Shown here piece after piece: positions 10,942-64,000 of a stretch of DNA of 64,000 nucleotides. A program made the position numbers and the translations under genes. The notes under the pieces were generated by a model that did no database searches, was not told the DNA's origin, and saw only the letters and a program-made list of their open reading frames with translations. The stretch covers positions 1-64,000 of IMG/VR virus record IMGVR_UViG_3300010403_000021, one strand, 5' to 3'. This DNA is from a virus. Taxonomy: Duplodnaviria > Heunggongvirae > Uroviricota > Caudoviricetes. Numbering within the stretch: the first letter of the stretch is position 1; the number at the start of each line of letters is the position of its first letter.

Positions 10942-12852
10942 ATGCTACCTACTAAAACAGATATTCATGTAAGTGGTGATTTGGGCGGGGAAAGAGTACA
11001 GATGCGCCTTGATGCTGATAGTACAGCGCATCTTATGTCACTATTGACAGATCTATATTCTGACCCGCTTCTAGCAGTAATCAGAGAATATAGTACAAAT
11101 GCGTGGGATTCTCATGTAGCTGCTGGTGTAAATAAGCCAATTGAGGTAACCACACCAAATTATTTAACATCAACATTCCGTGTTAAAGATTATGGTCTTG
11201 GTATGGATGCGAATGATATTCGTGAAATCTATTCAAGTTATGGTGCTTCTACCAAGCGATCAAGCAATGATCAGGTTGGTATGCTCGGTCTTGGTAGTAA
11301 GAGTGGTTTGACTTATACCGATCAGTTTAATGTCATTGGTATTAAGAATGGTGTCAAGACCAGTGTTGCCGTTTCACGTTCTGGTGATGGTGGCGGTGTC
11401 ATGGAAATCATCGATGCTTCTCCCACCAATGAACCTAATGGTGTTGAGATTATTATTCCTATTAAAAAGAACAGCAATATTTTGAGTAAAGCTGAACAGT
11501 TCTTCAGATTTTGGGAACCGGGCAGAGTTTTGCTTAATGGTAAAGAGCCGCACTATATCTGGGAAGATTCAACCAAGGTCGGTAGATTTTACATCATCAA
11601 TGATGTAACAGACTATGTTGTCATGGGTAATGTCGCTTATCCGGTAAAGAATGAGATTACCGGCCAAGAGGGTTATAATCGTGAACGTGCTGTCGTAAAA
11701 GTTGATATCGGTGATGTTACCTTTACTCCTTCACGTGAATCATTGCAGATGACTCTTACCACTAAGAAAATGCTTTCAAGTTTACGTGAGGAATTCGCAG
11801 CAGAAGTAGTCAAGGAAATTGAAGTAAAGCTTTCTGCCTGTAATACTTATAAAGAAGCCTATAAAATGTTCAAGTCTTTAAGAAGCATGAATACTTTTAC
11901 AAGGCACATGAATAATGCAACCTACAAGGGAGCAAAGTACATTGAGTCTTATAAATTTGATTGGCATGTCAGCGGATTTCATCGTGATCAAATCAGCGCG
12001 GTGGAAGCGAGAAATTCCAGTCTCGGTTATGGTCTTGATAATATAGTTATTATTCATGGCTTCGATTGTGCTAGATTGAATGCTCCACAGAAAAAGAAGA
12101 TCAAGCTATATCTTGAGGACAATGGTATTCTTACCGGACAAGCTGTAGTATTTGTTAATAGAGATAAGCCTGATTCAGTATGGTTCAGTGAATGTCATCA
12201 GGTTGAATGGAAGACAATCAAGGCTATCAAGCTGGAATCTGCGAGGGTGGTAAGAACACAAGATACTTGGGATGTTCTTTGTTCACGTGGTAATAGGGAT
12301 TACAATCAGACTGTAGATAATACAAAGAAGCTTATTTATGGTTCCGGCGCTGAAATCAATGCCGATGCTGATCCTATTCTTGACATTCTTATCAATAACG
12401 ATACTCAGTTTCTTTTGGTTGGTAAAAATCGTCAAGATAAGTTTGTCAAGGCTAATCCAAAAGCAGTATATTGGCTTGACGAGGCTAAGGCCAGAGTGCT
12501 ACACTATATTGATAACGTAGCAAAAGATGACGTTAAACTGATCGACCAAGATATGAATCACATTGATATTCTATCAAGACTGGATATGTCTAAAATTGAT
12601 GATCCGGAAGTTAGTAGTATTGTATTCAGTGGTTCAGTAAATTCTCAGCACGCGGCACAACAACGATACAGCAATTATCGTAGATTGGCATCAAGACTAA
12701 AAGTTCCGGGTATGCCAGAACGTGTGGGTCGTGGCAATACAGATCTACTTGATAATTATCCTATGCTTACTCAGCTTGGATATAATTGTAGGTATGTTCC
12801 GGAAGAGCACATCTATGCTTACATGAATGCCATTTATGATTTAGGTCTATAA
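10942..12852 (+). CDS. rIIA: rIIA-like GHKL (Bergerat-fold) ATPase
   Basis: REYSTNAWDS (ExxxNAxD), DYGLGMD (DxGxG), GMLGLGSKSG; immediately upstream of rIIB homologue. Confidence 0.65.
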   Translation: MLPTKTDIHVSGDLGGERVQMRLDADSTAHLMSLLTDLYSDPLLAVIREYSTNAWDSHVAAGVNKPIEVTTPNYLTSTFRVKDYGLGMDANDIREIYSSYGASTKRSSNDQVGMLGLGSKSGLTYTDQFNVIGIKNGVKTSVAVSRSGDGGGVMEIIDASPTNEPNGVEIIIPIKKNSNILSKAEQFFRFWEPGRVLLNGKEPHYIWEDSTKVGRFYIINDVTDYVVMGNVAYPVKNEITGQEGYNRERAVVKVDIGDVTFTPSRESLQMTLTTKKMLSSLREEFAAEVVKEIEVKLSACNTYKEAYKMFKSLRSMNTFTRHMNNATYKGAKYIESYKFDWHVSGFHRDQISAVEARNSSLGYGLDNIVIIHGFDCARLNAPQKKKIKLYLEDNGILTGQAVVFVNRDKPDSVWFSECHQVEWKTIKAIKLESARVVRTQDTWDVLCSRGNRDYNQTVDNTKKLIYGSGAEINADADPILDILINNDTQFLLVGKNRQDKFVKANPKAVYWLDEAKARVLHYIDNVAKDDVKLIDQDMNHIDILSRLDMSKIDDPEVSSIVFSGSVNSQHAAQQRYSNYRRLASRLKVPGMPERVGRGNTDLLDNYPMLTQLGYNCRYVPEEHIYAYMNAIYDLGL

Positions 12853-18492: not shown

Positions 18493-18589
18493 GGAAGAAT
18501 GGCAACTGAGGGAATGTTGCACCCTGCCGGTAAGTCAGGGATTGATTGGACGCAATCATAAAACGTAGGTTCGAGTCCTCCTTCTTCCA
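18493..18589 (+). tRNA. type II tRNA-like gene (97 nt) with an apparent 9-nt anticodon loop CCGGTAAGT; isotype unassigned
   Basis: perfect acceptor GGAAGAA/TTCTTCC, D-stem GCAA/TTGC, anticodon stem CCCTG/CAGGG, variable-arm hairpin GATTG-GACG-CAATC, T-arm GTAGGTTCGAGTCCTCC. Confidence 0.4.
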
Positions 18590-18612
18590 CTTCATATAAT
18601 GAAAGGTATAAA

Positions 18613-29433: not shown

Positions 29434-29438
29434 AAGTA

Positions 29439-29506
29439 ATCCGTTTAGTATAATGGTATTGCACCGGTACCCATCGGTAATACGGGTTCGATTCCCGTAG
29501 CGGATT
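29439..29506 (+). tRNA. tRNA, anticodon ambiguous (loop region GTACCCAT; Gly-like ACC/CCC possible)
   Basis: acceptor ATCCGTT/AGCGGAT, T-arm ACGGGTTCGATTCCCGT; anticodon stem ACCG(G)/(T)CGGT gives a 6- or 8-nt loop. Confidence 0.45.
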
Positions 29507-29528
29507 ATTCAACAAGAGGAGTAATGTA

Positions 29529-51937: not shown

Positions 51938-52168
51938 ATGCTAACACAACCAGAAATGCGTCTTAGTGATGATGGAATGATAGCCCATAAAGTCTCTGAG
52001 GATGAAGAGGATATATCCGGGGAGCAAAGAAATTGGGTTATCGCCTATGTTCCTTTACCGGAACGACTCTATGACGCTTGGATAGGTTTTCCATTGTACG
52101 ATTATGAAGTTGAGGATTGGATGATTCTTCCCAACTTCCCCGCATTGGTTGATTGTATTGAAAGCTGA
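51938..52168 (+). CDS. acidic hypothetical protein
   Basis: internal ATG of track ORF 51890. Confidence 0.35.
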   Translation: MLTQPEMRLSDDGMIAHKVSEDEEDISGEQRNWVIAYVPLPERLYDAWIGFPLYDYEVEDWMILPNFPALVDCIES

Positions 52169-52177
52169 CATACTAGC

Positions 52178-52213
52178 ACCGGCCTTGATTTAAACATCAA
52201 TCAAGGCCGGTGC
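52178..52213 (+). terminator. 14-bp hairpin CACCGGCCTTGATT...AATCAAGGCCGGTG
   Basis: perfect inverted repeat after stop. Confidence 0.5.
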
Positions 52214-52234
52214 GGTATTAAAAGGAGATAATTA

Positions 52235-52411
52235 ATGGACGTCGTATTTATTGCCACTCACTCACGTGTTGAAATTATGGGATCACAAGCTCTTATTCAA
52301 AGATATGTTGATGCCATCAAGGGGCAACATGATCCTAGTTCTTACATGGAGAATTACTCACTAGCATCATCAAATAGTTCATATGATCCGATTATTTACT
52401 ACTGTAAATAA
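52235..52411 (+). CDS. small hypothetical protein (58 aa)
   Basis: strong SD AAAGGAG; not in track. Confidence 0.4.
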   Translation: MDVVFIATHSRVEIMGSQALIQRYVDAIKGQHDPSSYMENYSLASSNSSYDPIIYYCK

Positions 52412-52446
52412 TATTTAAATAATTATTTTGATGGTGGAATAAATAT

Positions 52447-52531
52447 ATATTGCTGTGATTTTTCATTTTCTTTCGTAATACTTATATAAATATATAATAT
52501 TGTGGCGATTTTTGGCTTTTCTTCGTAATGT
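52447..52531. repeat. imperfect direct repeat (~34 bp, ~80% identity) ATATTGCTGTGATTTTTCATTTTCTTTCGTAAT / ATATTGTGGCGATTTTTGGCTTTTCTTCGTAAT at the AT-rich/GC-rich junction
   Basis: aligned by eye; second copy abuts the composition switch. Confidence 0.5.
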
Positions 52532-52616
52532 CAATTCCATACAAAGGCTGGTCGCTGGCCACCACCGGGCACCGAGCACGCGCGCACGTGCAAATGATCA
52601 ACTTCGCGATTTGCAT

Positions 52617-53609
52617 ATGCTAAGAGATCAAACCGTGACCTTAGGGTTACCATTACGTGATCTAAAACATCGTTTTGTGGTTAGACTTGCGTTGCAAGCG
52701 CAGGCACACGGAGGAGATACGGACATGGTCAAGCTCTCGACTGTTCAGTTGGACCGGTTGCGGTTTCTGGGGTACTCGGAACGTGGCGCATTGGGTGGCA
52801 CCCGAAAGGCGACCATTGCCAAGCTCATGACGCTTGGTTTCATCCGTGACAACGGCAGGCTGTTCCGGTCATACGAGATCACTCCGGAAGGCATTGACCA
52901 CCTGCTGTCTGTTGTGCCGAACGCACCGATTCACACCAGCCACATGGGACCGGTTGTCATCGGTGCCTATGTGATCCACAACGGTCGGACTGGTGTCGTT
53001 CGCAAGATGCACGTCACTGAAAACAACACCATTTTTGGCGGAGTTGTCGGTGTTGAATTCGATGACTCTGTTATCAAGTGCGAAATGATTTCTTTCCGTG
53101 AATTGGAAACGACTGCGGCACGTTCAGCGGTTCACTTTCGCGAGGGTAGAGAAGGTCACGGGGATTCCCGTAGTTGGACCCGTTTGCTCAATGGCAAGCT
53201 GTACAGCTTCAACGTGGTGAACATGCCCAATGGTGAGGTGCGTTGGTTTGTTTCCATTTACAACGGTTACATTGGCGGGCCAAAATTCGCGTGTGCATGG
53301 TCGCGTGTTCGGCAGTGGACTTTCACTGCTGTTCAGCCCGTGCCTACCAAGTGGGTTGCCGAGCGCAACGGGCTGAACCTTTGGCGTGACGAGGATAAGG
53401 CAATGGCCTATCAGTCAACGCCAGTGTTTGACACTCGATTCGGTGCGTTGGGTGCATTGACTGCCATGCTCACCGATGAAATCAGCGGATGGAAGCGTAT
53501 GGGTAAGGACGCCACGCGCGATGAATTGATCTTGTCCGATGTCATCGGACATCCGAACCGTAACGAGTGGTCCGCTGGAAACGTTCAGTGGTCGATTCGC
53601 GGTTGGTGA
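52617..53609 (+). CDS. hypothetical protein, GC-rich (start uncertain; track ORF starts at TTG 52500 inside the repeat)
   Basis: long ORF with GC-rich codon usage. Confidence 0.45.
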   Translation: MLRDQTVTLGLPLRDLKHRFVVRLALQAQAHGGDTDMVKLSTVQLDRLRFLGYSERGALGGTRKATIAKLMTLGFIRDNGRLFRSYEITPEGIDHLLSVVPNAPIHTSHMGPVVIGAYVIHNGRTGVVRKMHVTENNTIFGGVVGVEFDDSVIKCEMISFRELETTAARSAVHFREGREGHGDSRSWTRLLNGKLYSFNVVNMPNGEVRWFVSIYNGYIGGPKFACAWSRVRQWTFTAVQPVPTKWVAERNGLNLWRDEDKAMAYQSTPVFDTRFGALGALTAMLTDEISGWKRMGKDATRDELILSDVIGHPNRNEWSAGNVQWSIRGW

Positions 53610-53631
53610 TCATTACATAGATAGACAATGG

Positions 53632-53658
53632 ATCTAAGCGGCCCCAACGTCAACGGCG
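53632..53658 (+). terminator. 10-bp hairpin GGCCCCAACG-TCAACGG-CGTTGGGGCC
   Basis: perfect inverted repeat 23 nt after stop. Confidence 0.5.
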
Positions 53659-53659
53659 T

Positions 53660-54850
53660 TGGGGCCTAGCTTTGCCTTAGAGCGTTTGCACATGCAAAAC
53701 AGGCTGCTATTCGCCCTCTAAGGCGTTGGGGTGGTCCTACCCATACAAAGACCCTAGGAAGCTATAAAAGTCGCTCTATGGCGAACATACAGGCCTTTAA
53801 GGGGCATTGTGGAGCACCTCGGCTCACACGCGTGCACAGGTGCATGATTGGACGTACTGATCAGTAACATGCGCACGCCATGTGCAGTAGCAAATCTGAC
53901 CAATTTCTAAGCCTGTGACCAGCGGAAACTCCGTCAGCGGCCTAACGCCGTTGGGGTGGTATGGATGTACCGGGGAAGGCTTTAAAGCGCTTAGCGTGGC
54001 TCTGAGAGGCCTTTACGGCGATATGGCCAGTCGACGCCTAGAGCATCAAATATGGTAACAACGCGGTAACTTATACATCAGTGGTCTATGCATCAAATGT
54101 TGATCAAGCTCTGACCTGCACAAACACCGTTAGCAAAAGAAAATCCTTGACTCAATGGGGGCCTGTGGTGCGTACTTGTGGAGCACCACGAACACCACAA
54201 CTCAAAACGCCAGACACGGGAACCCTTAGACGTCAAGGGTTTGAGAGCTAGTAGCAACACTACGTGTCACGGATACCGAGTTGACAGCCTAAACTGAATT
54301 TGCTACCTTTAAGGCCCCGCAAGGGGACGCACCACCCGCTAGCTCCCCAAAAGGGAACTTGGAAGCCTCACGACACGGCTTAGGGACGATTGAACTTTGA
54401 GAACTCAATAGCGAGCAAAGCCTAGTGAACAGGTGCGCTGATTACACGGACAGTCCCCGTGTACACCATTACCCTTGCGGGATGCAAGCGTGGCAGCAAT
54501 AGACCGAAGCGACTAGGGAGGCAATCCGACATATATTGTCCAAGCGTTCCGAGTATGCGAGTGCCGGACCAATCATGAGTCCCCCGCATAAATCCGCTTG
54601 GATAAAGATTATGAGGAATGTCTGACATAAGGTAAATCGCTTAGGGGCCGGTGATCCGCCCAATGCGCTTAAGACATATAGCGATTACCTGGCAGTATGG
54701 GATACCAGGTTTGGGGAATCAAATAAAGGTTTCCGGTGGTTCGATTCCACTCACTCTCACTAGCCCATTGGTGTATAAGCCTGACATTAAATCGGGAAAG
54801 CACAGTCATTCCCTAAAAAGGAGTGAGAGACCGGAATTAACCGGATGGGT
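53660..54850. other. ~1.2-kb GC-rich region without credible ORFs; contains repeated CGTTGGGG(TGG) motifs and a tRNA T-arm-like GGTGGTTCGATTCCACT (54735-54751)
   Basis: six-frame track shows only short or low-complexity ORFs; repeats at ~53649, 53722, 53947. Confidence 0.5.
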
Positions 54851-55015
54851 GTTAACTAAACGAAAAGAGAGTCAATTGCTCACCGTTGCTTTGCTGCTGA
54901 TTGTTCCGGTGATCGGTAAGGCTGTTTACGACACTCGCCTTACCGCAGACGAAAACGCGAACAATGACACCACCATTTTCGGTGAGTCGATTTACAACCC
55001 GGAAGGGTAATCGAA

Positions 55016-55249
55016 ATGAACTTTAGGCACATGGCCGATTTCATCGCTCACAACGGCACTGACGACGTTGACCTTTACCGCCGACACGTCAAGGCATGTG
55101 TCATTGCGGATGACAGCGGAGCGTTTCCGTTGTTTCCCGAATGGTTCGGCATCTACTACGCCGAAATGAACGTCGACTACGGTTTCAAGACGCGTCTTAT
55201 CCGGCGTCTCAAGTTCATCAAAGCTGCTTTCACGGGAAAGGTTGCCTGA
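55016..55249 (+). CDS. hypothetical protein
   Basis: ORF, GC-rich codon usage. Confidence 0.45.
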   Translation: MNFRHMADFIAHNGTDDVDLYRRHVKACVIADDSGAFPLFPEWFGIYYAEMNVDYGFKTRLIRRLKFIKAAFTGKVA

Positions 55250-55250
55250 C

Positions 55251-55520
55251 ATGCGCGTTGTCATTAAGGAATACAAGGGTCCGGGTGGGGAAATTCTGGA
55301 CTTGCTCAACGTGCTGGTGTTTCCGGATCGGGCAAACAACGTCGGTCGTATGGCCGATGTGCGGGGTGCGGACAACCGTAAGCCGCGTTCGTGGCAGATC
55401 ATGTGTGCAATCGGAGAGACGGAAACGTTCAACTCTACCGAAATGCTCTACATGGTTCGGAACGTTCACACCGGGCAGTGGACGATTGCGTTTCTGTCCG
55501 AACTCGGAAACCTCTACTAG
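55251..55520 (+). CDS. hypothetical protein
   Basis: ATG one nt after upstream TGA. Confidence 0.45.
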   Translation: MRVVIKEYKGPGGEILDLLNVLVFPDRANNVGRMADVRGADNRKPRSWQIMCAIGETETFNSTEMLYMVRNVHTGQWTIAFLSELGNLY

Positions 55521-55602
55521 CTAGGATTCCCTACGGTATTTATTGGTCCGTGCATTCGATTGCGAATAGGGAGCGCATTAACAATCGATGAAAGGTTGTC
55601 TA

Positions 55603-55872
55603 ATGACCATTCTCATGACTCCCGGTAAAACCCTTGACGAGTGCAAGGTCGAACAGATCAGCAAGACGCCTGCACTTCAGTGGGTCATTGACCACGTGGT
55701 GCACGGTGCAGTGGTGACCACTCACGGCATGTGCGGTTTGGTCGCTGCTGAACCGCGTACGGCCAGCAATGGCGCTTCGATGTTCCACTGCTACGGTTGC
55801 AACCTGACCCGCGTGGCAATGGAATTCCGTCCACAACCGTACAAGATCACCCGTTACGACTTTCTTTACTAG
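55603..55872 (+). CDS. hypothetical protein
   Basis: SD AAAGG. Confidence 0.4.
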   Translation: MTILMTPGKTLDECKVEQISKTPALQWVIDHVVHGAVVTTHGMCGLVAAEPRTASNGASMFHCYGCNLTRVAMEFRPQPYKITRYDFLY

Positions 55873-55880
55873 GGGTCACA

Positions 55881-56240
55881 ATGTACGAAGACGCGCATTT
55901 GGATGCCTCTTATGAGGATCGTTTCGCTGATGAGGTCTACTTTGGTAACGGACCTGATTGGGACCTACGCGATTTTGACGATTTTGATAACGACGAAAAC
56001 GAATGTGAGGGGCACGAAAGTCTGAACGGTGGCGACATGGGAGTTACCCGCTACTGTGACGGCTCTTGTGTGGTTTCAGCCGCTCCATTGCATTCGGATT
56101 CCACACAGATTCACCGCGCTGCCAATGGTCACACCATGAGCTATCGAGTCAAGCCCAATGGTGACCTCAGTCAGCATGATGCGACATGCGTTTACGATTG
56201 TCGTGCGTGTCAGAATGGTGATCAGCGTCCGGATTGGTAA
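55881..56240 (+). CDS. acidic Cys-rich hypothetical protein
   Basis: internal ATG of track ORF 55797. Confidence 0.4.
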   Translation: MYEDAHLDASYEDRFADEVYFGNGPDWDLRDFDDFDNDENECEGHESLNGGDMGVTRYCDGSCVVSAAPLHSDSTQIHRAANGHTMSYRVKPNGDLSQHDATCVYDCRACQNGDQRPDW

Positions 56241-56312
56241 AGCTTTTAATTCCCTCGGTTTAGCCGTGGCATTCAATTGCAAGGGAATTGTTTCCAATGA
56301 AAGGTGACAACA

Positions 56313-56690
56313 ATGGGAACTCCTAAGATCAATAGCACCGACGCCGCGTTCATTTACACTTTGGGCATGGTGGTCGGTGCTAACCCTGACAAGATCTACA
56401 CCATGCCCAATGAAATTGGGTGTGCCTACGTGCACCATGTCGACGGTGGTGGCCTGTGTGACGGCTGTCTGATCGGGACGGTACTCGTCAAGATGGGTGT
56501 GCCACGTGAGTGGTTCATTGAGGTAGACGCCAACACTGGCAAGGGTGCTGGTCTGGTGTTGGCGCAGTTCGGTTTCAGTCGTGAAATCGGCATCGCTGCT
56601 GATCGAGCGCAGAACGTGCAAGATGGCGGATCACCGTGGTGGCGAGCCGGTGAGGAATTCCTTTACACCTACGCTCAAATCAAGGCCTAG
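56313..56690 (+). CDS. hypothetical protein
   Basis: ORF. Confidence 0.45.
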   Translation: MGTPKINSTDAAFIYTLGMVVGANPDKIYTMPNEIGCAYVHHVDGGGLCDGCLIGTVLVKMGVPREWFIEVDANTGKGAGLVLAQFGFSREIGIAADRAQNVQDGGSPWWRAGEEFLYTYAQIKA

Positions 56691-56813
56691 CAACAAAGTC
56701 GGGCGCGACTTTAAACACGCCGGACGGATAATGGTTAATAGGGTTCATGGCCTATTCAAAGGTTCGATTCCTTTGGTCCGTACTCATGTAAAAGCTAAAT
56801 TGGAGGAAAGTAA

Positions 56814-57296
56814 ATGGCTCTTAGGTCCATTACCTCTTACATGTCAGGGGCTTTCAAGAGTCCTGGTGACCTTTTCAATGATGCTTTCGAATTCCTGGCA
56901 GATAAGGAATTCGATACGATGATCGGGACCGGTCTTTCCGGATCACTGATCATTCCGGTTTTGGCCAGGGAATTCGGTTCAGATTTCAATTGGGCCATCA
57001 TTCGCAAAGATCCTGGCAGCTCTCATGCCTCTACCGAATTGGAAGGGTATATCGGTAAGCGTTGGATTTTTGTAGATGATCTGATCGATTCCGGCGCAAC
57101 TTTGAAGCGTGTTAAGCAGGTGGTTGCTGATCGCTGCAAGGCTAATTCCTACTGGGACGGACATAAGACCGAATATGTGGGTACGTACCTTTACCACACA
57201 CGGCGTTGGTATCCCGCTGATCACCAGGTGGGCTATTACGTGAATTGCCGTTGTTTGACGTGTGATGCCTTAGAATCACGTCGTTACTCCTACTGA
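56814..57296 (+). CDS. type I phosphoribosyltransferase-domain protein
   Basis: RWIFVDDLIDSGATL PRPP-binding motif; GTGLSGSLIIPVLA flexible-loop region. Confidence 0.6.
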   Translation: MALRSITSYMSGAFKSPGDLFNDAFEFLADKEFDTMIGTGLSGSLIIPVLAREFGSDFNWAIIRKDPGSSHASTELEGYIGKRWIFVDDLIDSGATLKRVKQVVADRCKANSYWDGHKTEYVGTYLYHTRRWYPADHQVGYYVNCRCLTCDALESRRYSY

Positions 57297-57310
57297 ACAA
57301 AAAGTAAATA

Positions 57311-57423
57311 GAGGATATAGTTCAATTGGATTAGAATAACTAGCATAAGATACATCCCCACACATTGAATTGGGATGAATAGCTTATGTTAGATAGATGA
57401 GGGTTCGAGTCCCTCTATCCTCG
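57311..57423 (+). ncRNA. AT-rich extended tRNA-like gene (113 nt): perfect acceptor GAGGATA/TATCCTC, D-arm, T-arm GAGGGTTCGAGTCCCTC; anticodon position replaced by a 10-bp stem plus inner hairpin
   Basis: folded by eye; 10-bp helix CTAGCATAAG/CTTATGTTAG encloses ATCCC-13nt-GGGAT. Confidence 0.4.
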
Positions 57424-57879
57424 CTACCCTTAATGGGTATTGTTAAATAGTTCGGCTTCCCGCGCTTTTGCCCGGAAAACAAGTGTAAGCCCGAATGCGA
57501 ATAGCATTGGTCACTAGGTTGGCTACTACGGTCCCAATCGACACGGCTGTATGCGTGATTCGAGCCGTCAATTACCTTGCTCATGTGCATATACTCTATG
57601 ACGGTAAAGAGTTGGAAAGTGTGCACCGTAGGCGTTATCGATTGCGCGACAATATAAATGTCGGTGTGGAGACGCAAAGTCCAATGCGCTATCAATATGG
57701 TCATTGACCTGACAGTTAGCACTAGGGCGATACCACTTGAGTGGGAGTCAGAGAAACATAAGCAATTGATAAGCGACCTTTAGGAGATAATAAAAACAAG
57801 CGGCGGTTATATCATTATATTATGGTATCGCTAAGTGCGGGACAAATAAACAAAACCCGCTTTAACGAAAGGCGTAACA

Positions 57880-58107
57880 ATGGATCTTGCTAAAGTGCAA
57901 AAGCTAAATGCCGCTGCACATTCTCTTGATTCTTGGGTAGAGACGCTAGCGTTTTACGTTGAAAATCCTACGGCGGTTCCGAATAGAGCGGCTACCACGT
58001 TTGCAACACGTGAGGAATTCATTGAGCACATCGGTTGCATGATTGGACACTATCAAGACGAATTCAATGCCGCGTACAACGATATTCCGGAATGGGTGAG
58101 TAAATGA
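57880..58107 (+). CDS. hypothetical protein
   Basis: ORF. Confidence 0.45.
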   Translation: MDLAKVQKLNAAAHSLDSWVETLAFYVENPTAVPNRAATTFATREEFIEHIGCMIGHYQDEFNAAYNDIPEWVSK

Positions 58108-58589
58108 CTAAGCTGACTCCCGCTGCCAAGCGTTATGCGCTGGAATTGGTCAAGCGCCGGAAGATTCAAGATGAGCACGCAAATTGCGTTCAGCCTGGTT
58201 TTGTCGTCAGATACGGCGTGCGGCTCAATGACAATGATGAATTTGTCGAGCGTCCTTACAGCGTGCCAACGTATGAAACCGACCATCACAATAACTGCCA
58301 ACTGGCACGCATCATTCCCCGGAACTACTGCCGACACGGAAATTTTGTTGGCGACCCGTGGGGACCTGATTACATGTGCGGGTTTTGTGAGAATGGAGAC
58401 GATCTCTCACTGTATGAAATCGCATTGGACGATGCGAGAGAACATCAGCGGCGTCTCACCGAACACGTGGTTGAACGCGCACAAAAGGCAGTGCTAGAGG
58501 AACTAGTTTCGATCTATAAAGCCGATGCCAATATGGCCGAATGGATTGACCCTGATGTAATCGCAAAGTTGGTCCGCGCTGGTGACTGA
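58104..58589 (+). CDS. Cys/His-rich hypothetical protein
   Basis: ATGA overlap. Confidence 0.45.
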   Translation: MTKLTPAAKRYALELVKRRKIQDEHANCVQPGFVVRYGVRLNDNDEFVERPYSVPTYETDHHNNCQLARIIPRNYCRHGNFVGDPWGPDYMCGFCENGDDLSLYEIALDDAREHQRRLTEHVVERAQKAVLEELVSIYKADANMAEWIDPDVIAKLVRAGD

Positions 58590-58913
58590 CGTGTATGGCT
58601 TAAGGTGCCCTAGAGACTCCACACAGCCTCTAGACGCGCCTAGGGTGCACGTACCCTACCCGAGACCATTTGATCTTGTTACAGACGAAATGAGCGGCCA
58701 ATGTTCATCTTGATTGCGAACGTCGTGAGCAATGATGGAATCGTCGAAACAAAGGAATACGCGGACTTTCCTTTTGTTCCCGCCATGCACACTAACTTTT
58801 TGGTGCGCAACACGTTGATTGCCATTGATCGAGTTGATATCGATCCGATTGGTCTGGCCGGAACTCCCATTGTGACCATTAGTGGCAGGGTCACCCGATA
58901 GCAAAGGATTGTC

Positions 58914-59279
58914 ATGTATCTGTTGGTGATCACTGCTCCCGAGACTGGTCACACTAAGTCCATTCGGGTGGCTGACACGGAAAACATTCCCCTTTGGGCT
59001 GAATTCGATAAGGTTTGTGAGGCTGAAAAGGAATATCGAACGATCACCGTGTGGGATGTCGAAAAGAACGGCAGTCTCTATTCTTACACGGTGAATCGCC
59101 CCTCACGAACGCCTGAGCCCATCGATATGCAAAAGGTTGACGAGTGGGTTAAGGAATATCTGATGAACGAACGGGGTGAAATCAGTAAGATTCAAATGAT
59201 CAAGCTGACCCGTGAGCGATTCAACGGCCTGGGGCTTAGGGAAGCATTGGCCATTGTTCAGCCTTATTTCGTCTGTTAG
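58914..59279 (+). CDS. hypothetical protein (possible partner of downstream Fic)
   Basis: ORF; 8 nt upstream of fic start. Confidence 0.45.
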   Translation: MYLLVITAPETGHTKSIRVADTENIPLWAEFDKVCEAEKEYRTITVWDVEKNGSLYSYTVNRPSRTPEPIDMQKVDEWVKEYLMNERGEISKIQMIKLTRERFNGLGLREALAIVQPYFVC

Positions 59280-59287
59280 GGGAGATA

Positions 59288-59758
59288 ATGAATCTGGCAC
59301 GTGTTGCGGCCATCGCGGCAGATGAGGCAATCAGGCAAAAGGTTGGCATCAAGGGGTTCGCTGACTTGCTTAAGGCTTATGAGTTGGCGTCTCACATGTC
59401 CGCATATGGCACGTTGCAAGAATTGGACGTGTTGGCCATTGCTGCCCGTGTGAATGGCCTTGATCTGATTGACTACCGTCATACTCCAGTCACGTTTCCG
59501 AACATGACGGTTGCTCCGCATCACAGCATTATCCCAAACGCAATGCGTTCTATGTTCGCATTGGTCAAATTCATTGGGTCTAGCCATCCCGATGACGCAA
59601 ACGTTATTGACTCGACTGTAGACGGATGGATTAAGAACTTTCTTGACATTCATCCTTTCATTGATGGCAATGGCAGAACGGCATGGATTCTGCGAACGTG
59701 GTTGCTGAATCAGTGGGATTACCCATTCCCATTGCCCAATTACTACGGTGAGGCTTAA
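59288..59758 (+). CDS. Fic/Doc-family protein
   Basis: HPFIDGNGRTAWIL = Fic motif HPFx[DE]GNGR. Confidence 0.75.
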   Translation: MNLARVAAIAADEAIRQKVGIKGFADLLKAYELASHMSAYGTLQELDVLAIAARVNGLDLIDYRHTPVTFPNMTVAPHHSIIPNAMRSMFALVKFIGSSHPDDANVIDSTVDGWIKNFLDIHPFIDGNGRTAWILRTWLLNQWDYPFPLPNYYGEA

Positions 59759-59911
59759 ATGAATATCAACCCGCGTGCGTTGGTTCTGTTGTCAACCATG
59801 ATGTTCACTACGGCAATGTTCGCTTGGAAGCTTGCCGGACCATATTGGGTGACCATGCTCATTCTCACCATTGTTTACGGTCTGTTTCTTTCCCTGGTGA
59901 CTGTGAACTGA
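59759..59911 (+). CDS. small membrane protein (50 aa)
   Basis: ATG overlaps fic stop (TAAATGA); 2 TM; not in track. Confidence 0.35.
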   Translation: MNINPRALVLLSTMMFTTAMFAWKLAGPYWVTMLILTIVYGLFLSLVTVN

Positions 59912-60045
59912 TGACATGATTTATCGAATAGGGAGGCACATTCGAAAGTATTCACTAGTATATTTCCTTTTCTTTGTGCTTATTGCAATGTGCACTCTGA
60001 TTACGCTCAAGCAATATTCTATTCTTTCTACCTAAGGGGTTTCAA

Positions 60046-60210
60046 ATGTCGGTGCTCAACGTCACTGCCGGTAAGTTCATCACCGTTGCCGGTATCCGAC
60101 GCAAGGTGTTCGCGGTCTACCCCGTCAAGGGCGCCCGTTGGTTCCTGGTGAACGACGTCAACGGCAACCGCAAGCCCGTGATCTACAGCAACTCCCACGT
60201 TTTCGCCTGA
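60046..60210 (+). CDS. small hypothetical protein (54 aa)
   Basis: SD AAGGGG; followed by terminator hairpin. Confidence 0.4.
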   Translation: MSVLNVTAGKFITVAGIRRKVFAVYPVKGARWFLVNDVNGNRKPVIYSNSHVFA

Positions 60211-60239
60211 TAGTCGCTTTAAACCAAACCAATAGATAG

Positions 60240-60268
60240 GGGCACCGATCAAAACAAATCGGTGCCCC
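60240..60268 (+). terminator. 11-bp hairpin GGGGCACCGAT-CAAAACAA-ATCGGTGCCCC
   Basis: perfect inverted repeat. Confidence 0.5.
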
Positions 60269-60292
60269 CTTAACCCAAAAGGGGTAAAGAAA

Positions 60293-61009
60293 ATGACCGA
60301 TATCGTTAACACTGAGACTGCCACCGTTGTCAAGCCGCTTGTTTATGACAAGGATGCGCGCTCCGTGCGTATCGAGAATGCGGACGATTTCCGTGTGGCT
60401 GCGAAGTTCTTTGGCATTCCCGTTAAGGCTGCTGGTCGCCTGCCGTTCAAGGCCCTTGCTCAGCACGTTCTGCGGCTGAATTGGGCCATTGTGCCCACTG
60501 ACCTTTTCAACAATTCGGTTGCGCTGGGCGGCACGACTAGTGTTCCCAAGGATAAGAGCGTAGAGACCGTGTGGAACGTGAGCTACCGCAAGGTGCACGC
60601 CAACGGCGGAACGGGTCCGATTCAGACGGCTACGGTCACGCTGGCCGATGTCCGTAAGCACACGGGCGAAAAGGCAGGGCGAATTGGTCCCAAGCGCGTC
60701 ATGGTGGCGCTTGCTGCCAAGCTTGAGACGACGTTGGACAAGCTGACCACGGCGGGGCACACGTTCGCCAATGCGCAGTCTGAGGACATCACTACGGCCA
60801 TGCTGGCTGGCACGGTGAGCGAGGTAGACCAGACTCCCGTTCCGGTGGTTGAGGTCAAGTCCGATGAATCCGCCGATTCGACCGGATGCTTGGTTGGCGC
60901 GGTACTGGCCGAGGGTGAGCACGCTACCGACGAGCAGATCACTGCGGCCATCGCTGCTGGTGAGTCTGAGACTGACGACAGTGAGACCCGCGCTGCTGTT
61001 CTGGTCTGA
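60293..61009 (+). CDS. hypothetical protein with acidic C-terminus
   Basis: strong SD AAAGGGGTAAAG; preferred over antisense ORF 60158-60922. Confidence 0.5.
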   Translation: MTDIVNTETATVVKPLVYDKDARSVRIENADDFRVAAKFFGIPVKAAGRLPFKALAQHVLRLNWAIVPTDLFNNSVALGGTTSVPKDKSVETVWNVSYRKVHANGGTGPIQTATVTLADVRKHTGEKAGRIGPKRVMVALAAKLETTLDKLTTAGHTFANAQSEDITTAMLAGTVSEVDQTPVPVVEVKSDESADSTGCLVGAVLAEGEHATDEQITAAIAAGESETDDSETRAAVLV

Positions 61010-61115
61010 CGTCTGCTAGACCGTTTTAATTAGAGGTTAGTTAGCTTGGCATTAGTGCTGCGCGATGCGTACTAATGCCTTGCTAGATATCCGACTGATT
61101 AGCGGAGGTAATTCA

Positions 61116-61367
61116 ATGTTCATGGACATGCCGGTTTTTAGCATGGATAATTTCACACCCGAATCCTATTATGAACATGATGGAATTCGGGTGGAAATCG
61201 AAAAGGTCGGCGGGGGAACTATTGGTAGGAAGTATATCGGCAATTGGTTTTACCGGGTGATTGTGCATGGTGTATGGACGACTAGTGGTAGTGACTATGT
61301 CACCAATACAGCCAAGTCACATCACCAGGTGGCTTTTGATCTTTGGGAATACTTTACTAGGGAGTAA
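61116..61367 (+). CDS. hypothetical protein
   Basis: SD GGAGG before internal ATG. Confidence 0.4.
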   Translation: MFMDMPVFSMDNFTPESYYEHDGIRVEIEKVGGGTIGRKYIGNWFYRVIVHGVWTTSGSDYVTNTAKSHHQVAFDLWEYFTRE

Positions 61368-61368
61368 A

Positions 61369-61638
61369 ATGCATAACGGATATTACTTTCACTTTTACAA
61401 TGGTGAAACGGATATTAGCGGTAGTATTCATGCGGAAGGTGATGCCGATTGTGCAATCATTTGGCATGAAATTGATGGTCACATCATGTCTTTTATTCCC
61501 GCCGGTTTTGGTTGGTGGCAAGCCGATGACATTACCGAATCATTCGGTTACGGCTATGACCACTGGCGAAACCAGGAATTCGATTCAATGGAATCAGCCC
61601 TGGCGGCTATTATTGAAGCCGCTTTGATGTGCGTTTAG
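61369..61638 (+). CDS. hypothetical protein
   Basis: ORF. Confidence 0.4.
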   Translation: MHNGYYFHFYNGETDISGSIHAEGDADCAIIWHEIDGHIMSFIPAGFGWWQADDITESFGYGYDHWRNQEFDSMESALAAIIEAALMCV

Positions 61639-61646
61639 GGGATTGA

Positions 61647-61973
61647 ATGACCACTAAAGTCAAGGTGGAAAAGCGCACGCTTAAGCCCGGTGATTTGATC
61701 ACGCTTGAGTTTGCCTTTCACTCACTGATGAAAGCAAAGGTGATTGGTAAGGGTTGTCAGTATTTTGATGAGCGTAGAGATAGTGTGCGTGTTGTCATGA
61801 CTGCTGGTTACCCTGATTATTGGAAGGGTCGCATTATTGAGGTGCCGCGCTCTACCATTCGATTCCGTGATTTGGTGAATGAAAGGCGTATGCGTGCCGT
61901 TGCGTGGCCTTTCAATTGTGAATGGGATACTGAACCCGTTTCATGCGGTATCAGCGACGGCTATTACGATTAG
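61647..61973 (+). CDS. hypothetical protein
   Basis: ORF. Confidence 0.45.
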   Translation: MTTKVKVEKRTLKPGDLITLEFAFHSLMKAKVIGKGCQYFDERRDSVRVVMTAGYPDYWKGRIIEVPRSTIRFRDLVNERRMRAVAWPFNCEWDTEPVSCGISDGYYD

Positions 61974-61981
61974 GGGATTCA

Positions 61982-62230
61982 ATGCTTGACATTGCTGAAA
62001 TTGAAAAGCTTTTGGAACCGGTTGGCGATAAGCCGTATCAGCGGTTTGTGTGGGATTACATTGGTAACGAAACGCGTACCGTTGTTTATGATATGCATCA
62101 TGGGGGAAGGGAAGTAGCAACCTTTCTCAATGGCATCGCTGCGCAAATGGTGTGTAGTGATTGGAACGCCAGGCATGACAACGGTGAACGGCTTTACACC
62201 TTGGGTACCGGTGTGGATGGGGAGGACTAG
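61982..62230 (+). CDS. hypothetical protein
   Basis: ORF. Confidence 0.4.
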   Translation: MLDIAEIEKLLEPVGDKPYQRFVWDYIGNETRTVVYDMHHGGREVATFLNGIAAQMVCSDWNARHDNGERLYTLGTGVDGED

Positions 62231-62664
62231 TGCACATTTTCGGCGTCGGCGCTCAAACGGCCCGTGAGCAACTGATTCGGGTTGGTAATGCCCACTATGA
62301 CCGGAACCTGTACGTCAAGGCAGCGACCAGTCTGGACACCCGCAACGGTGAACGGTGCCGTATCACGTTGGGTGTTCATAGCTCACGTGCCAAGGGTGCC
62401 AGGCGTGCGGCTAGTGGTCGGTTGTGCGCTGCGCCATGCTGGCACGCCCATTACGATGTCATGTACGCCATTTTGAAGACCAACCCAGATGCGCGTATTA
62501 CCACTAGCCGTATTGGTGACATTGTTTACAACGGGTTGAGTGATTTCCTGTTGAGTGCACCCAATACCGCATATATCAATGTGGGCAATTACATGCAAAT
62601 TGCTTATCTGTGTGAATGCGACCATGACAACTGGGTATCGGCAATTGGACTGGTGAACGCATGA
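62230..62664 (+). CDS. hypothetical protein (GTG start)
   Basis: SD GGAGGA before GTG. Confidence 0.4.
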   Translation: MHIFGVGAQTAREQLIRVGNAHYDRNLYVKAATSLDTRNGERCRITLGVHSSRAKGARRAASGRLCAAPCWHAHYDVMYAILKTNPDARITTSRIGDIVYNGLSDFLLSAPNTAYINVGNYMQIAYLCECDHDNWVSAIGLVNA

Positions 62665-63038
62665 ATTCCAAGCAACTCGGTAAGTGGTTGGCCTGCAATA
62701 TCGCTTTTCAGGATGACCACTTGCAACACTTGGGTAGTCAAGGGCTTGATCGGGCTGACATCTCAACGATTCTGCGCGCGTTGGTGGATGGTAACTATAT
62801 CAATCCCGAAAGCTACGATCATTGGGACCTGGATAAGGTTCTAAAGGATATGAATGTGGTGTGCTGGGCTGATCGCGAGAGCTACGCACGCAATTTCGCC
62901 GATGTCGACGATGAATTCAATCCTTTCCATATGCCCAGTTGGGTGGAAATTGATTGGAAGTCGAGTGCCGACAATCTTTTGCAAGACATTCCGGTAATCG
63001 AATTGGGCGACCAATTTGTAACCTTTTACGAGGGGTGA
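62661..63038 (+). CDS. hypothetical protein
   Basis: ORF. Confidence 0.45.
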   Translation: MNSKQLGKWLACNIAFQDDHLQHLGSQGLDRADISTILRALVDGNYINPESYDHWDLDKVLKDMNVVCWADRESYARNFADVDDEFNPFHMPSWVEIDWKSSADNLLQDIPVIELGDQFVTFYEG

Positions 63039-63040
63039 CA

Positions 63041-63154
63041 ATGTGCACCTATTGTGTTCACTGTAGTTGCATCATTGAATTTTACCGGGGGCTTTGGTGG
63101 GATGTTACTGACGATTTCATGTGTCCCAATGGTGAAAACGAACATAAGCCTTAA
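63041..63154 (+). CDS. tiny Cys-rich protein (37 aa)
   Basis: CTYCVHCSC...C. Confidence 0.25.
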   Translation: MCTYCVHCSCIIEFYRGLWWDVTDDFMCPNGENEHKP

Positions 63155-63162
63155 GGATCAAT

Positions 63163-63558
63163 ATGAACCTGACGCGTGAATCAATCGGTGATGCTTTGGA
63201 CGTCTATGCTAAGCATCATGGCTCTACGGTCTATGAAATGCCGGGGTCAGAGTGCAAGTATGTCGAATGGGATTTTGACACTTGCACTTTGGTTGGTGGT
63301 TGTCTCTACGGGCATGTCATGACGGATCTAGGGATGTCTCTGGAGACGCTGGCAGACAACTGGGAAGGCAAAGAAATTAATGCCATTCTCAAGTCATACG
63401 GTGTCGATGACGCACGACTGATCAATGCAGCCTTGTGCAGTCAAAGGGTGCAAGACACGTGCGAATTGAGTTGGGCACATGCCGTACAGACGTTTCACGC
63501 AATTCTAGAACTCGGTACGCGTGACATCGATGCAAATGCCATCTATGGCAATGATTGA
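63163..63558 (+). CDS. hypothetical protein
   Basis: ORF. Confidence 0.45.
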   Translation: MNLTRESIGDALDVYAKHHGSTVYEMPGSECKYVEWDFDTCTLVGGCLYGHVMTDLGMSLETLADNWEGKEINAILKSYGVDDARLINAALCSQRVQDTCELSWAHAVQTFHAILELGTRDIDANAIYGND

Positions 63559-63579
63559 GTAGTTAGCGCGTATGCATCA

Positions 63580-63651
63580 CATTTAGCGCCGGTAAACGCC
63601 AAAAACGCTAAAAGTGCCGGGTAGATAAATGTGATGCATAGGCATAAACAC
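63580..63651. repeat. 15-bp perfect inverted repeat TATGCATCACATTTA ... TAAATGTGATGCATA separated by ~42 nt, at the right edge of the GC-rich island
   Basis: read directly; composition returns to AT-rich downstream. Confidence 0.55.
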
Positions 63652-63674
63652 TCAAACTTAAGGGGATAAATGCA

Positions 63675-63833
63675 ATGCTGGATGTTATCTATCTATTGGT
63701 GGGTTGGTGTTTTGTATCCATTTCCACAGTTGGCGTAGTAGCACTACCCGTAGGTTTTATTTGCTGTGTCATCAGTGATGCCAAACAAGCAAGGGGTAAT
63801 AATGCGAGCAGTAAGCATCGAATCATTTATTGA
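63675..63833 (+). CDS. small membrane protein (52 aa)
   Basis: not in track. Confidence 0.25.
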   Translation: MLDVIYLLVGWCFVSISTVGVVALPVGFICCVISDAKQARGNNASSKHRIIY

Positions 63834-63987
63834 GATTAAGTATGGTGATCCAATCAAGGATTACAATGGAAATAAATGGATTTTCGCCGGGGTGAGTGGA
63901 AAAGAGGTAGTAGTTCTAAAGAAAGGTAGTGATGTATTGCAAGTAATGTATCCAAGTATCTTTGATTTGATGCTGCTGGAGGTTTAA
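63802..63987 (+). CDS. hypothetical protein
   Basis: SD AAGGGG before ATG. Confidence 0.35.
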   Translation: MRAVSIESFIEIKYGDPIKDYNGNKWIFAGVSGKEVVVLKKGSDVLQVMYPSIFDLMLLEV

Positions 63988-64000
63988 TAATAGTCTGCCT

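Follow-up and report, generated by a model that had tools for sequence, protein, structure and literature searches.

A conserved non-coding block in a clade of large tRNA-rich phages that probably encodes a structured RNA of about 1 kb

Positions 53680-54698 of a phage sequence, analysed here as a window of 64 kb (the whole stretch of DNA under study, 64,000 nucleotides), probably encode on the plus strand a functional, structured non-coding RNA of about 1 kb. The block does not code for protein, purifying selection acts on it to a degree similar to that seen in the neighbouring genes, and its potential for base pairing is conserved, with compensatory changes. The RNA is most likely carried by a rare clade of large tRNA-rich phages, being known in four related phages, and the best reading, by analogy, is a new class of large phage-encoded structured RNA comparable to GOLLD and ROOL. 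The block and its surroundings comprise the following features (L003 and L004 are contigs of two related, uncultured phages).

52725-53609, plus strand: upstream gene encoding 294-369 aa (according to which start codon is used), whose location with respect to the RNA is the same in every relative
53640-53666, plus strand: terminator-like hairpin GGCCCCAACG-tcaacgg-CGTTGGGGCC, downstream of the upstream gene, forming the 5' boundary of the conserved block
53657-53664, 53724-53731 and 53949-53956, plus strand: copies of CGTTGGGG; one further copy, on the minus strand, is the other arm of the hairpin
53680-54698, plus strand: conserved non-coding block of ~1,020 nt, the proposed large structured RNA
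54109-54151, plus strand: longest nearly invariant block, CTGACCTGCACAAACACCGTTAGCAAAAGAAAATCCTTGAC (alignment columns 474-516), with one variable position across the window, L003 and L004
54699-54759, plus strand: tRNA-like remnant, reduced to GGGA, the T-arm and the 3' acceptor strand (CACUCUC plus A)
54876-55010, plus strand: conserved gene for a membrane peptide of 44 aa (start codon TTG), which bounds the non-coding region on its downstream side

That more than 1 kb here lacks a convincing ORF on either strand, as pointed out in a preliminary description of this DNA, was borne out by the distribution of stop codons. TAA, TAG and TGA are all present in the six frames of 53610-54875 and each occur several times per frame within 53610-54860, the longest ORF inside the region has 68 aa, and the plus-strand gap of 1,041 bp is the longest in the 64-kb window without an ORF of at least 60 aa. 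Because all three stops interrupt every frame between 53610 and 54860, coding is excluded even with a reassigned stop, and stop-codon reassignment was ruled out. None of the nine small ORFs of the region stays open in both L003 and L004. An ORF of 115/119 aa starting at 54651/54663 was rejected as an over-extension of the 44-aa gene backwards through the T-arm; the 44-aa gene itself retains a VIGK[AG]VYDTR motif in L003 and L004.

The region lies, as previously described, in a GC-rich island (51.6% G+C vs 39.3% in window positions 1-52000). A G+C step from 39% to 49% at ~52 kb (window 52000-64000) is shared by L003 and L004 and is thus an ancestral feature and not a recent insertion; this genome arm, 52000-64000, holds many small genes and structured RNAs. 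On the 5' side, the hairpin that follows the upstream gene has arms of 10 bp (53640-53649 and 53657-53666) around a 7-nt loop, so that the terminator hairpin reported at 53632-53658 is present, with its actual span at 53640-53666, and conservation begins directly past it, at ~53680. In L003 and L004 this place is occupied by another G+C hairpin, with a T-run behind it on the plus strand only. No sigma-70 promoter was recognised on the plus strand inside the region. The upstream protein had no match in Pfam, PHROG or PADLOC, and its homologues on L003 and L004 (P0002, P0003) are 35% identical to it. This protein is a three-part mosaic with a winged-helix-like N-terminus, a middle domain of ~70 aa (residues 130-203) that recurs in ~100 proteins without annotation or other relationship to one another, and, in common with the relatives, a C-terminal domain that ends in WSIRGW. 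In L004, ~400 extra gene-free bases (11195-11640) lie upstream of the RNA, between two terminator-like hairpin copies.

All convincing genes and all 25 ARAGORN tRNAs of the window are on the plus strand, and among its proteins there are a Ro60/TROVE protein (5180-6784), an RIIA-like protein and two RNA ligases. Identity to proteins of Streptomyces BE-cluster phages (Stanwilliamsviridae; 'Ro-like' in the case of Ro60) is 39% for the RIIA protein and 55-58% for Ro60, and the phage is therefore a distant relative of the 130-kb tRNA-rich BE-cluster actinophages. Its lineage probably infects actinobacteria. No DNA-level similarity to GenBank phages was detected by megablast or by blastn even at E <= 5, with 50,697 phage genomes covered by BLAST. 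Two metagenomic contigs (L001, L002) are 100% identical to the window. L003 and L004, contigs of ~138.6 kb that were found through the upstream protein, both have a gene-free gap at the same place, and the non-coding region aligns with these gaps over its whole length (77% identity with L003, 72% with L004). Relatedness extends over the whole of the three genomes, many genes being 70-90% identical, and the region therefore does not exceed its neighbours in conservation; many ordinary intergenic spacers of these genomes do not align.

One partial homologue, L080, was recovered by an exact 19-mer scan of IMG/VR with GCAAAAGAAAATCCTTGAC, the sole homologue among the 22 loci obtained; most of the other loci have a conserved, apparently coding flank in common with one another, and none of them is related to the RNA. 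L080 is 91% identical to the window over 53511-54326, its upstream protein being just 35% identical. The L080 contig (IMGVR_UViG_3300005334_000001) tracks the RNA up to TTGAGAACTCAATAG (~window 54412; L080 9918-10004) and then passes into unrelated sequence, the 137.6-kb contig, or the stored locus, ending 86 nt past this departure, which may reflect an insertion, substitution of the 3' half or a break in the assembly. Searches of IMG/VR with the upstream protein or the GH5 protein gave no further homologue, and six of the seven DNA blocks used in exact-block scans of the same database gave nothing or chance matches. The 50 loci obtained in 18-mer scans of JGI metagenomes and GTDB genomes were all chance matches by nhmmer; since the 18-mer differs from L080 by a substitution, close variants escaped these scans. 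In a collection of 5.8 billion proteins only four phages of the clade are known, the fourth of which (L055) lacks the RNA region, and a six-frame pseudo-protein query for spurious ORF calls inside homologous RNA regions gave no match there. Two independent assemblies of the window phage, ENA k141_5334993 and Logan SRR6185436_11918641, end within 4 bases of each other at window ~55905-55909, which suggests a repeat or a population-variable junction.

The way in which the block is conserved differs from that of a protein-coding gene. It is 72-77% identical to L003 11274-12194 and L004 11646-12812, and in the three-way alignment of the window, L003 and L004 its 61% of invariant columns equals the value for the GH5-like gene. 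Variable columns are distributed over the three codon phases as 134/129/122 in the block vs 121/98/288 in the GH5-like gene, that is, without a 3-base periodicity, and indel lengths (1, 2, 4, 10, 12 and 14 among them) do not follow multiples of three. The longest invariant runs of the block (26, 23, 21, 19 and 19) exceed those of the GH5-like gene (17, 14, 12, 11 and 10). Three phages have retained the block as one unit, with a better conserved 3' part and, in L004, a variable middle segment.

Consensus folding of the same three sequences points to a conserved RNA structure. The RNAalifold core, which comprises alignment columns 44-1067 (window 53680-54698), has an energy of -212.9 kcal/mol vs -166±7 in null alignments whose columns were shuffled within conservation classes (z ~ -6.3). 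The fold contains 33 compensatory pairs, vs 16.8±3.9 in re-folded shuffles (maximum 25 in 60 runs), a comparison in which n = 3 and in which the structure is derived from the sequences that it is tested on. In a separate count, 36 compensatory pairs were obtained vs 14.9±2.8 with shuffled partners (36 was reached in none of 500 runs) and 2-8 with slid partners, and standard pairs made up 92% of the cells vs 35-43% with slid partners. The predicted elements are listed below, the domains being those of the consensus fold.

53716-54043, plus strand: predicted domain 1, helix-closed
54053-54290, plus strand: predicted domain 2, helix-closed
54299-54419, plus strand: predicted domain 3, helix-closed
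54421-54517, plus strand: predicted domain 4, helix-closed
54519-54623, plus strand: predicted domain 5, a long irregular hairpin (helices 34-36)
54630-54690, plus strand: predicted domain 6, a three-way junction at the 3' end (helices 37-39)
53818-53839, plus strand: hairpin with three compensatory pairs
54213-54218/54263-54268, plus strand: helix 20, closing a sub-domain, with four compensatory pairs
54315-54326, plus strand: CCCC-GCAA-GGGG hairpin (helix 24), whose loop is GUAA in L003, still GNRA
54443-54463, plus strand: best-supported hairpin (helix 32), with four compensatory pairs in its 7-bp stem and a loop, ACAGUCC, that is invariant
54645-54661, plus strand: hairpin in the 3' junction domain with two compensatory pairs

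Several of the hairpins combine two to four compensatory pairs with zero broken cells. In domain 54519-54623, helices 35 and 36 are paired in all cells and include three compensatory pairs, and in the helix at 54213-54268 L080 differs at two of the compensatory pairs yet stays paired. It is therefore likely that a conserved RNA structure exists, and a handful of hairpins is solid, whereas the modelled global fold, especially in the 5' 400 nt, is provisional. With L080 held out, a weak test, 12 changed pairs were kept and 10 broken (6-10 kept and 11-17 broken in slid controls), for which reason parts of the 5' fold are probably wrong. The covariation has low power because it comes from three full sequences and one partial sequence, all of a single phage clade, and with only four sequences in existence the detailed fold is tentative.

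On the reverse strand the figures are equally good (z -7.1, 40 compensatory pairs), and only 74 of the 271 predicted pairs are common to the folds of both strands. The plus strand is favoured because it carries all genes and tRNAs, the tRNA-like element next to the block and the upstream terminator with its T-run, and because domain 54519-54623, folded as a single sequence, scores better on it (z -5.5 vs -2.8 on the minus strand). We infer that the RNA is transcribed with the rest of this all-plus-strand region; its strand, ends and processing, and any function, are likewise inferred.

On the 3' side of the block lies the T-arm that had been recognised in the preliminary description: the sequence GGTGGTTCGATTCCACT is exactly at 54735-54751 and is preceded, as stated there, by an ACCTGG/CCAGGT hairpin (54687-54692 and 54705-54710). 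In the element to which it belongs (54699-54759) the D arm and the anticodon arm are deleted, the cloverleaf no longer folds, and neither ARAGORN nor the Rfam tRNA model detects a tRNA. It aligns to full cloverleaves in L003 (12190-12266) and L004 (12626-12711), which reach 53.2 and 47.1 bits on the Rfam tRNA model, and is therefore a tRNA-like remnant and not a piece of a tmRNA. In both relatives the conserved block ends in ...GCAGUAU and the cloverleaf starts at the next base. The acceptor and T stems of the two cloverleaves differ by compensatory changes, indicating that the fold is maintained. Their anticodon arms are aberrant, with a 7-bp stem and a 5-nt (or 9-nt) loop in L003, and an 8-bp stem capped by a tetraloop, together with an extra arm, in L004; judging by these sequences, the cloverleaves cannot decode. 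An ordinary tRNA was accordingly rejected, as the 5-bp anticodon stem and 7-nt loop are absent in L003 and L004 and the arm is deleted in the window.

We postulate that the RNA would lie between the terminator of the upstream gene and the tRNA-like element, in a genome rich in tRNA and RNA-repair genes. Since the cloverleaf of L003 and L004 abuts the last base of the RNA, RNase P cutting at the 5' end of the cloverleaf would release, and so create, the 3' end of the RNA. In the window phage the same cloverleaf has decayed to its T-arm, and because it is lost there the tRNA-like element cannot be required to make the RNA. By analogy with GOLLD and ROOL, it may be a self-folding, trans-acting RNA made during infection; it could form an RNA-only assembly like these two, or could serve the tRNA/RNA-repair programme of the phage (Ro60, RNA ligases).

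Other tRNA-like elements occur in the same genome. A 113-nt element at 57311-57423, missed by ARAGORN, scores 43.9 bits on the Rfam tRNA model and has a long hairpin of 10+6 bp in place of the anticodon arm. It opens a second conserved non-coding module (window 57311-57800), in which the ~350 nt after it are conserved, with an identity of 80-86% to gaps that lack genes in L003 and L004 and with apparent compensatory changes; apart from the tRNA, the module matched no Rfam family. Odd tRNA calls were also obtained at 29438-29507, 18493-18590 and 489-559: one has a two-base 'anticodon (cc)', one is a 98-nt tRNA-Tyr, and one is called by Rfam only, with 40.6 bits. It is a tentative proposal, which we would put forward with some reserve, that the phage carries an undescribed class of ornate RNA of ~1 kb, unrelated in sequence to GOLLD, ROOL and OLE and coupled to a tRNA mimic, with a second, smaller tRNA-mimic RNA 3 kb downstream.

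A function of this region at the level of DNA, as a replication origin, a packaging site or a terminal-repeat boundary, is very unlikely. The local repetition of CGTTGGGG would suit such an element: its four copies in the 64-kb window all fall within 53642-53956, against a chance expectation of 0.79, and four copies were reached in none of 100 shuffles. The three plus-strand copies on which the preliminary description had based its repeats are thus real, although the positions given for them (53649, 53722 and 53947) deviate by 2-8 nt. All copies are peculiar to the window and are not conserved in L003 or L004, and the region contains neither conserved iterons nor a DnaA box at <= 1 mismatch. 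Its G+C content (51.6%) is above that of the surroundings, it has no A+T-rich stretch, and compensatory changes in hairpins point to RNA over protein-binding DNA. On these grounds the origin or packaging region that had also been suggested is not supported. Two further observations could be taken in favour of a DNA element, namely that the IMG/VR contig L080 ends inside the conserved block and that Sham, a related, cultured Streptomyces phage of the BE cluster, has an unannotated gap of 1.39 kb rich in DnaA-box-like repeats within its terminal-repeat region, but the Sham gap is not homologous to the region. That gap (Sham 123290-124680; L056 38291-39681) is full of TGTGGATAA, which is DnaA-box-like, and of GTTGAA and TTGTAGCAA repeats, and therefore resembles an origin or promoter cluster; as iteron-rich, ori-like DNA without similarity to the region it was rejected as a counterpart of the RNA.

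At the level of RNA, the block might instead be a cis-acting structured leader of the downstream small-gene operon, or a string of smaller RNAs or regulatory hairpins. The absence of a terminator between it and the 44-aa gene, the prediction of six independent consecutive domains in place of one globally closed fold, and the apparent retention of just the first three domains in L080 are all compatible with this reading. We nevertheless regard it as unlikely, given that 1 kb is far above known lengths of bacterial or phage leaders, that the block is kept as a unit in three phages, and that in L003 and L004 a cloverleaf, a classic processing site, separates it from the downstream genes. It is less probable still that the block is a functionless relic, made of decayed genes or spacer, and aligns merely through the close kinship of the phages. 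The adjoining tRNA-like gene is visibly decaying in the window, and the region is not more conserved than neighbouring genes of often 70-90% identity; against this, other intergenic spacers of the same genomes fail to align, invariant runs exceed those of coding genes of equal overall identity, and both fold energy and compensatory pairs lie above the shuffled nulls. A strongly diverged representative of one of the known large RNA families, above all GOLLD, that escapes the Rfam models would share with the block its phage origin, a tRNA-rich genome, a length of >800 nt, the link to a tRNA-like sequence, a better conserved 3' part and, in L004, a variable middle segment. No match to GOLLD, ROOL, OLE or HEARO was found, however, at E <= 10 in the 1.5-kb interval or at E <= 1 in L003 and L004, which makes such membership highly improbable.

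A structured RNA of its own kind remains our preferred reading, and its comparison with known families is consistent with this. The Infernal scan proposed earlier, run against Rfam 15, gave no family other than tRNA at the gathering threshold in the window, at E <= 10 in 53550-55050 or at E <= 1 in L003 and L004; the sole trace, at 11.6 bits (gathering score 70), was the T-arm against the cyanobacterial tmRNA model. The large non-coding RNA foreseen in the preliminary description is thus supported by conservation without a coding signal, fold stability and covariation, whereas the classes named for it (tmRNA, ribozyme, intron) are not. Neither a ribozyme nor a remnant of a group I intron is indicated, since group I/II introns, RNase P RNA and known ribozymes gave no Rfam match at E <= 10, and an intron was further rejected because the flanks form neither a split gene nor a split tRNA. 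A bacterial Y RNA (YrlA) was likewise rejected, as there was no Rfam match and Ro60 is ~48 kb away; the YrlA/Y RNA models also gave no match near the Ro60 gene. At 7648-7741, ~0.9 kb downstream of Ro60, there is a weak tRNA-Sec-like match of 25.7 bits, which could be a tRNA-like Y RNA candidate.

To our knowledge, few bacterial or phage non-coding RNA classes exceed 500 nt, these being rRNA, RNase P, group II introns, OLE, GOLLD, ROOL and HEARO. In recent cryo-EM work OLE reportedly appeared as an RNA-only dimer, and GOLLD and ROOL as RNA-only cages. If the present reading is true, a further, unrelated 1-kb class of phage RNA becomes available as an object of structural and functional study, the practical caveat being that there are four sequences only. 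It would also strengthen the recurring association of giant phage RNAs with tRNA arrays, and would mean that such RNAs are still hidden in rare uncultured phage lineages missed by family-based scans.

Among known systems, tmRNA shares with the region a T-arm of the GGUUCGAUUCC type, and BE-cluster phages, relatives of the window phage, encode a tmRNA (PMC5764925). The region differs from tmRNA in lacking an ARAGORN call, a tag reading frame (the preliminary description had also seen none) and an acceptor stem with a distal 5' strand; tmRNA, whether standard or permuted into two pieces, was rejected since, besides the absence of that frame and of a complementary 5' strand, CACUCUC has a C at position 70 and there is no G3-U70. 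The MALAT1-mascRNA pair is an example of a tRNA-like 3' processing module. A similar arrangement is seen in L003 and L004, where the long RNA passes directly, after its last base, into a cloverleaf whose acceptor, D and T arms are intact but whose anticodon loop is unusable; it differs from modules of the MALAT1-mascRNA type in its bacterial phage context and in that the module is decayed, hence dispensable, in the window phage. ROOL, which we take to be shorter than the present RNA, resembles it as a large structured RNA of phages and prophages found near tRNA islands with no known protein partner, and differs in that its Rfam covariance model is not matched by the window RNA, L003 or L004. 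GOLLD and ROOL are both phage-encoded and located near tRNA islands, and GOLLD, in which tRNAs are sometimes included, has a 3' region that is conserved (PMC12286853). GOLLD (RF01998) differs from the present RNA, which is confined to four phages of one clade, in having no covariance-model match at E <= 10 and no sequence blocks in common with it. The likeness to GOLLD lies in location and architecture: both are phage-encoded, in tRNA-rich genomes (25 tRNAs in the window), both exceed 800 nt (~1,020 nt for the block) and are physically linked to a tRNA or tRNA-like sequence, and in both a better conserved 3' part is combined with a more variable internal segment.
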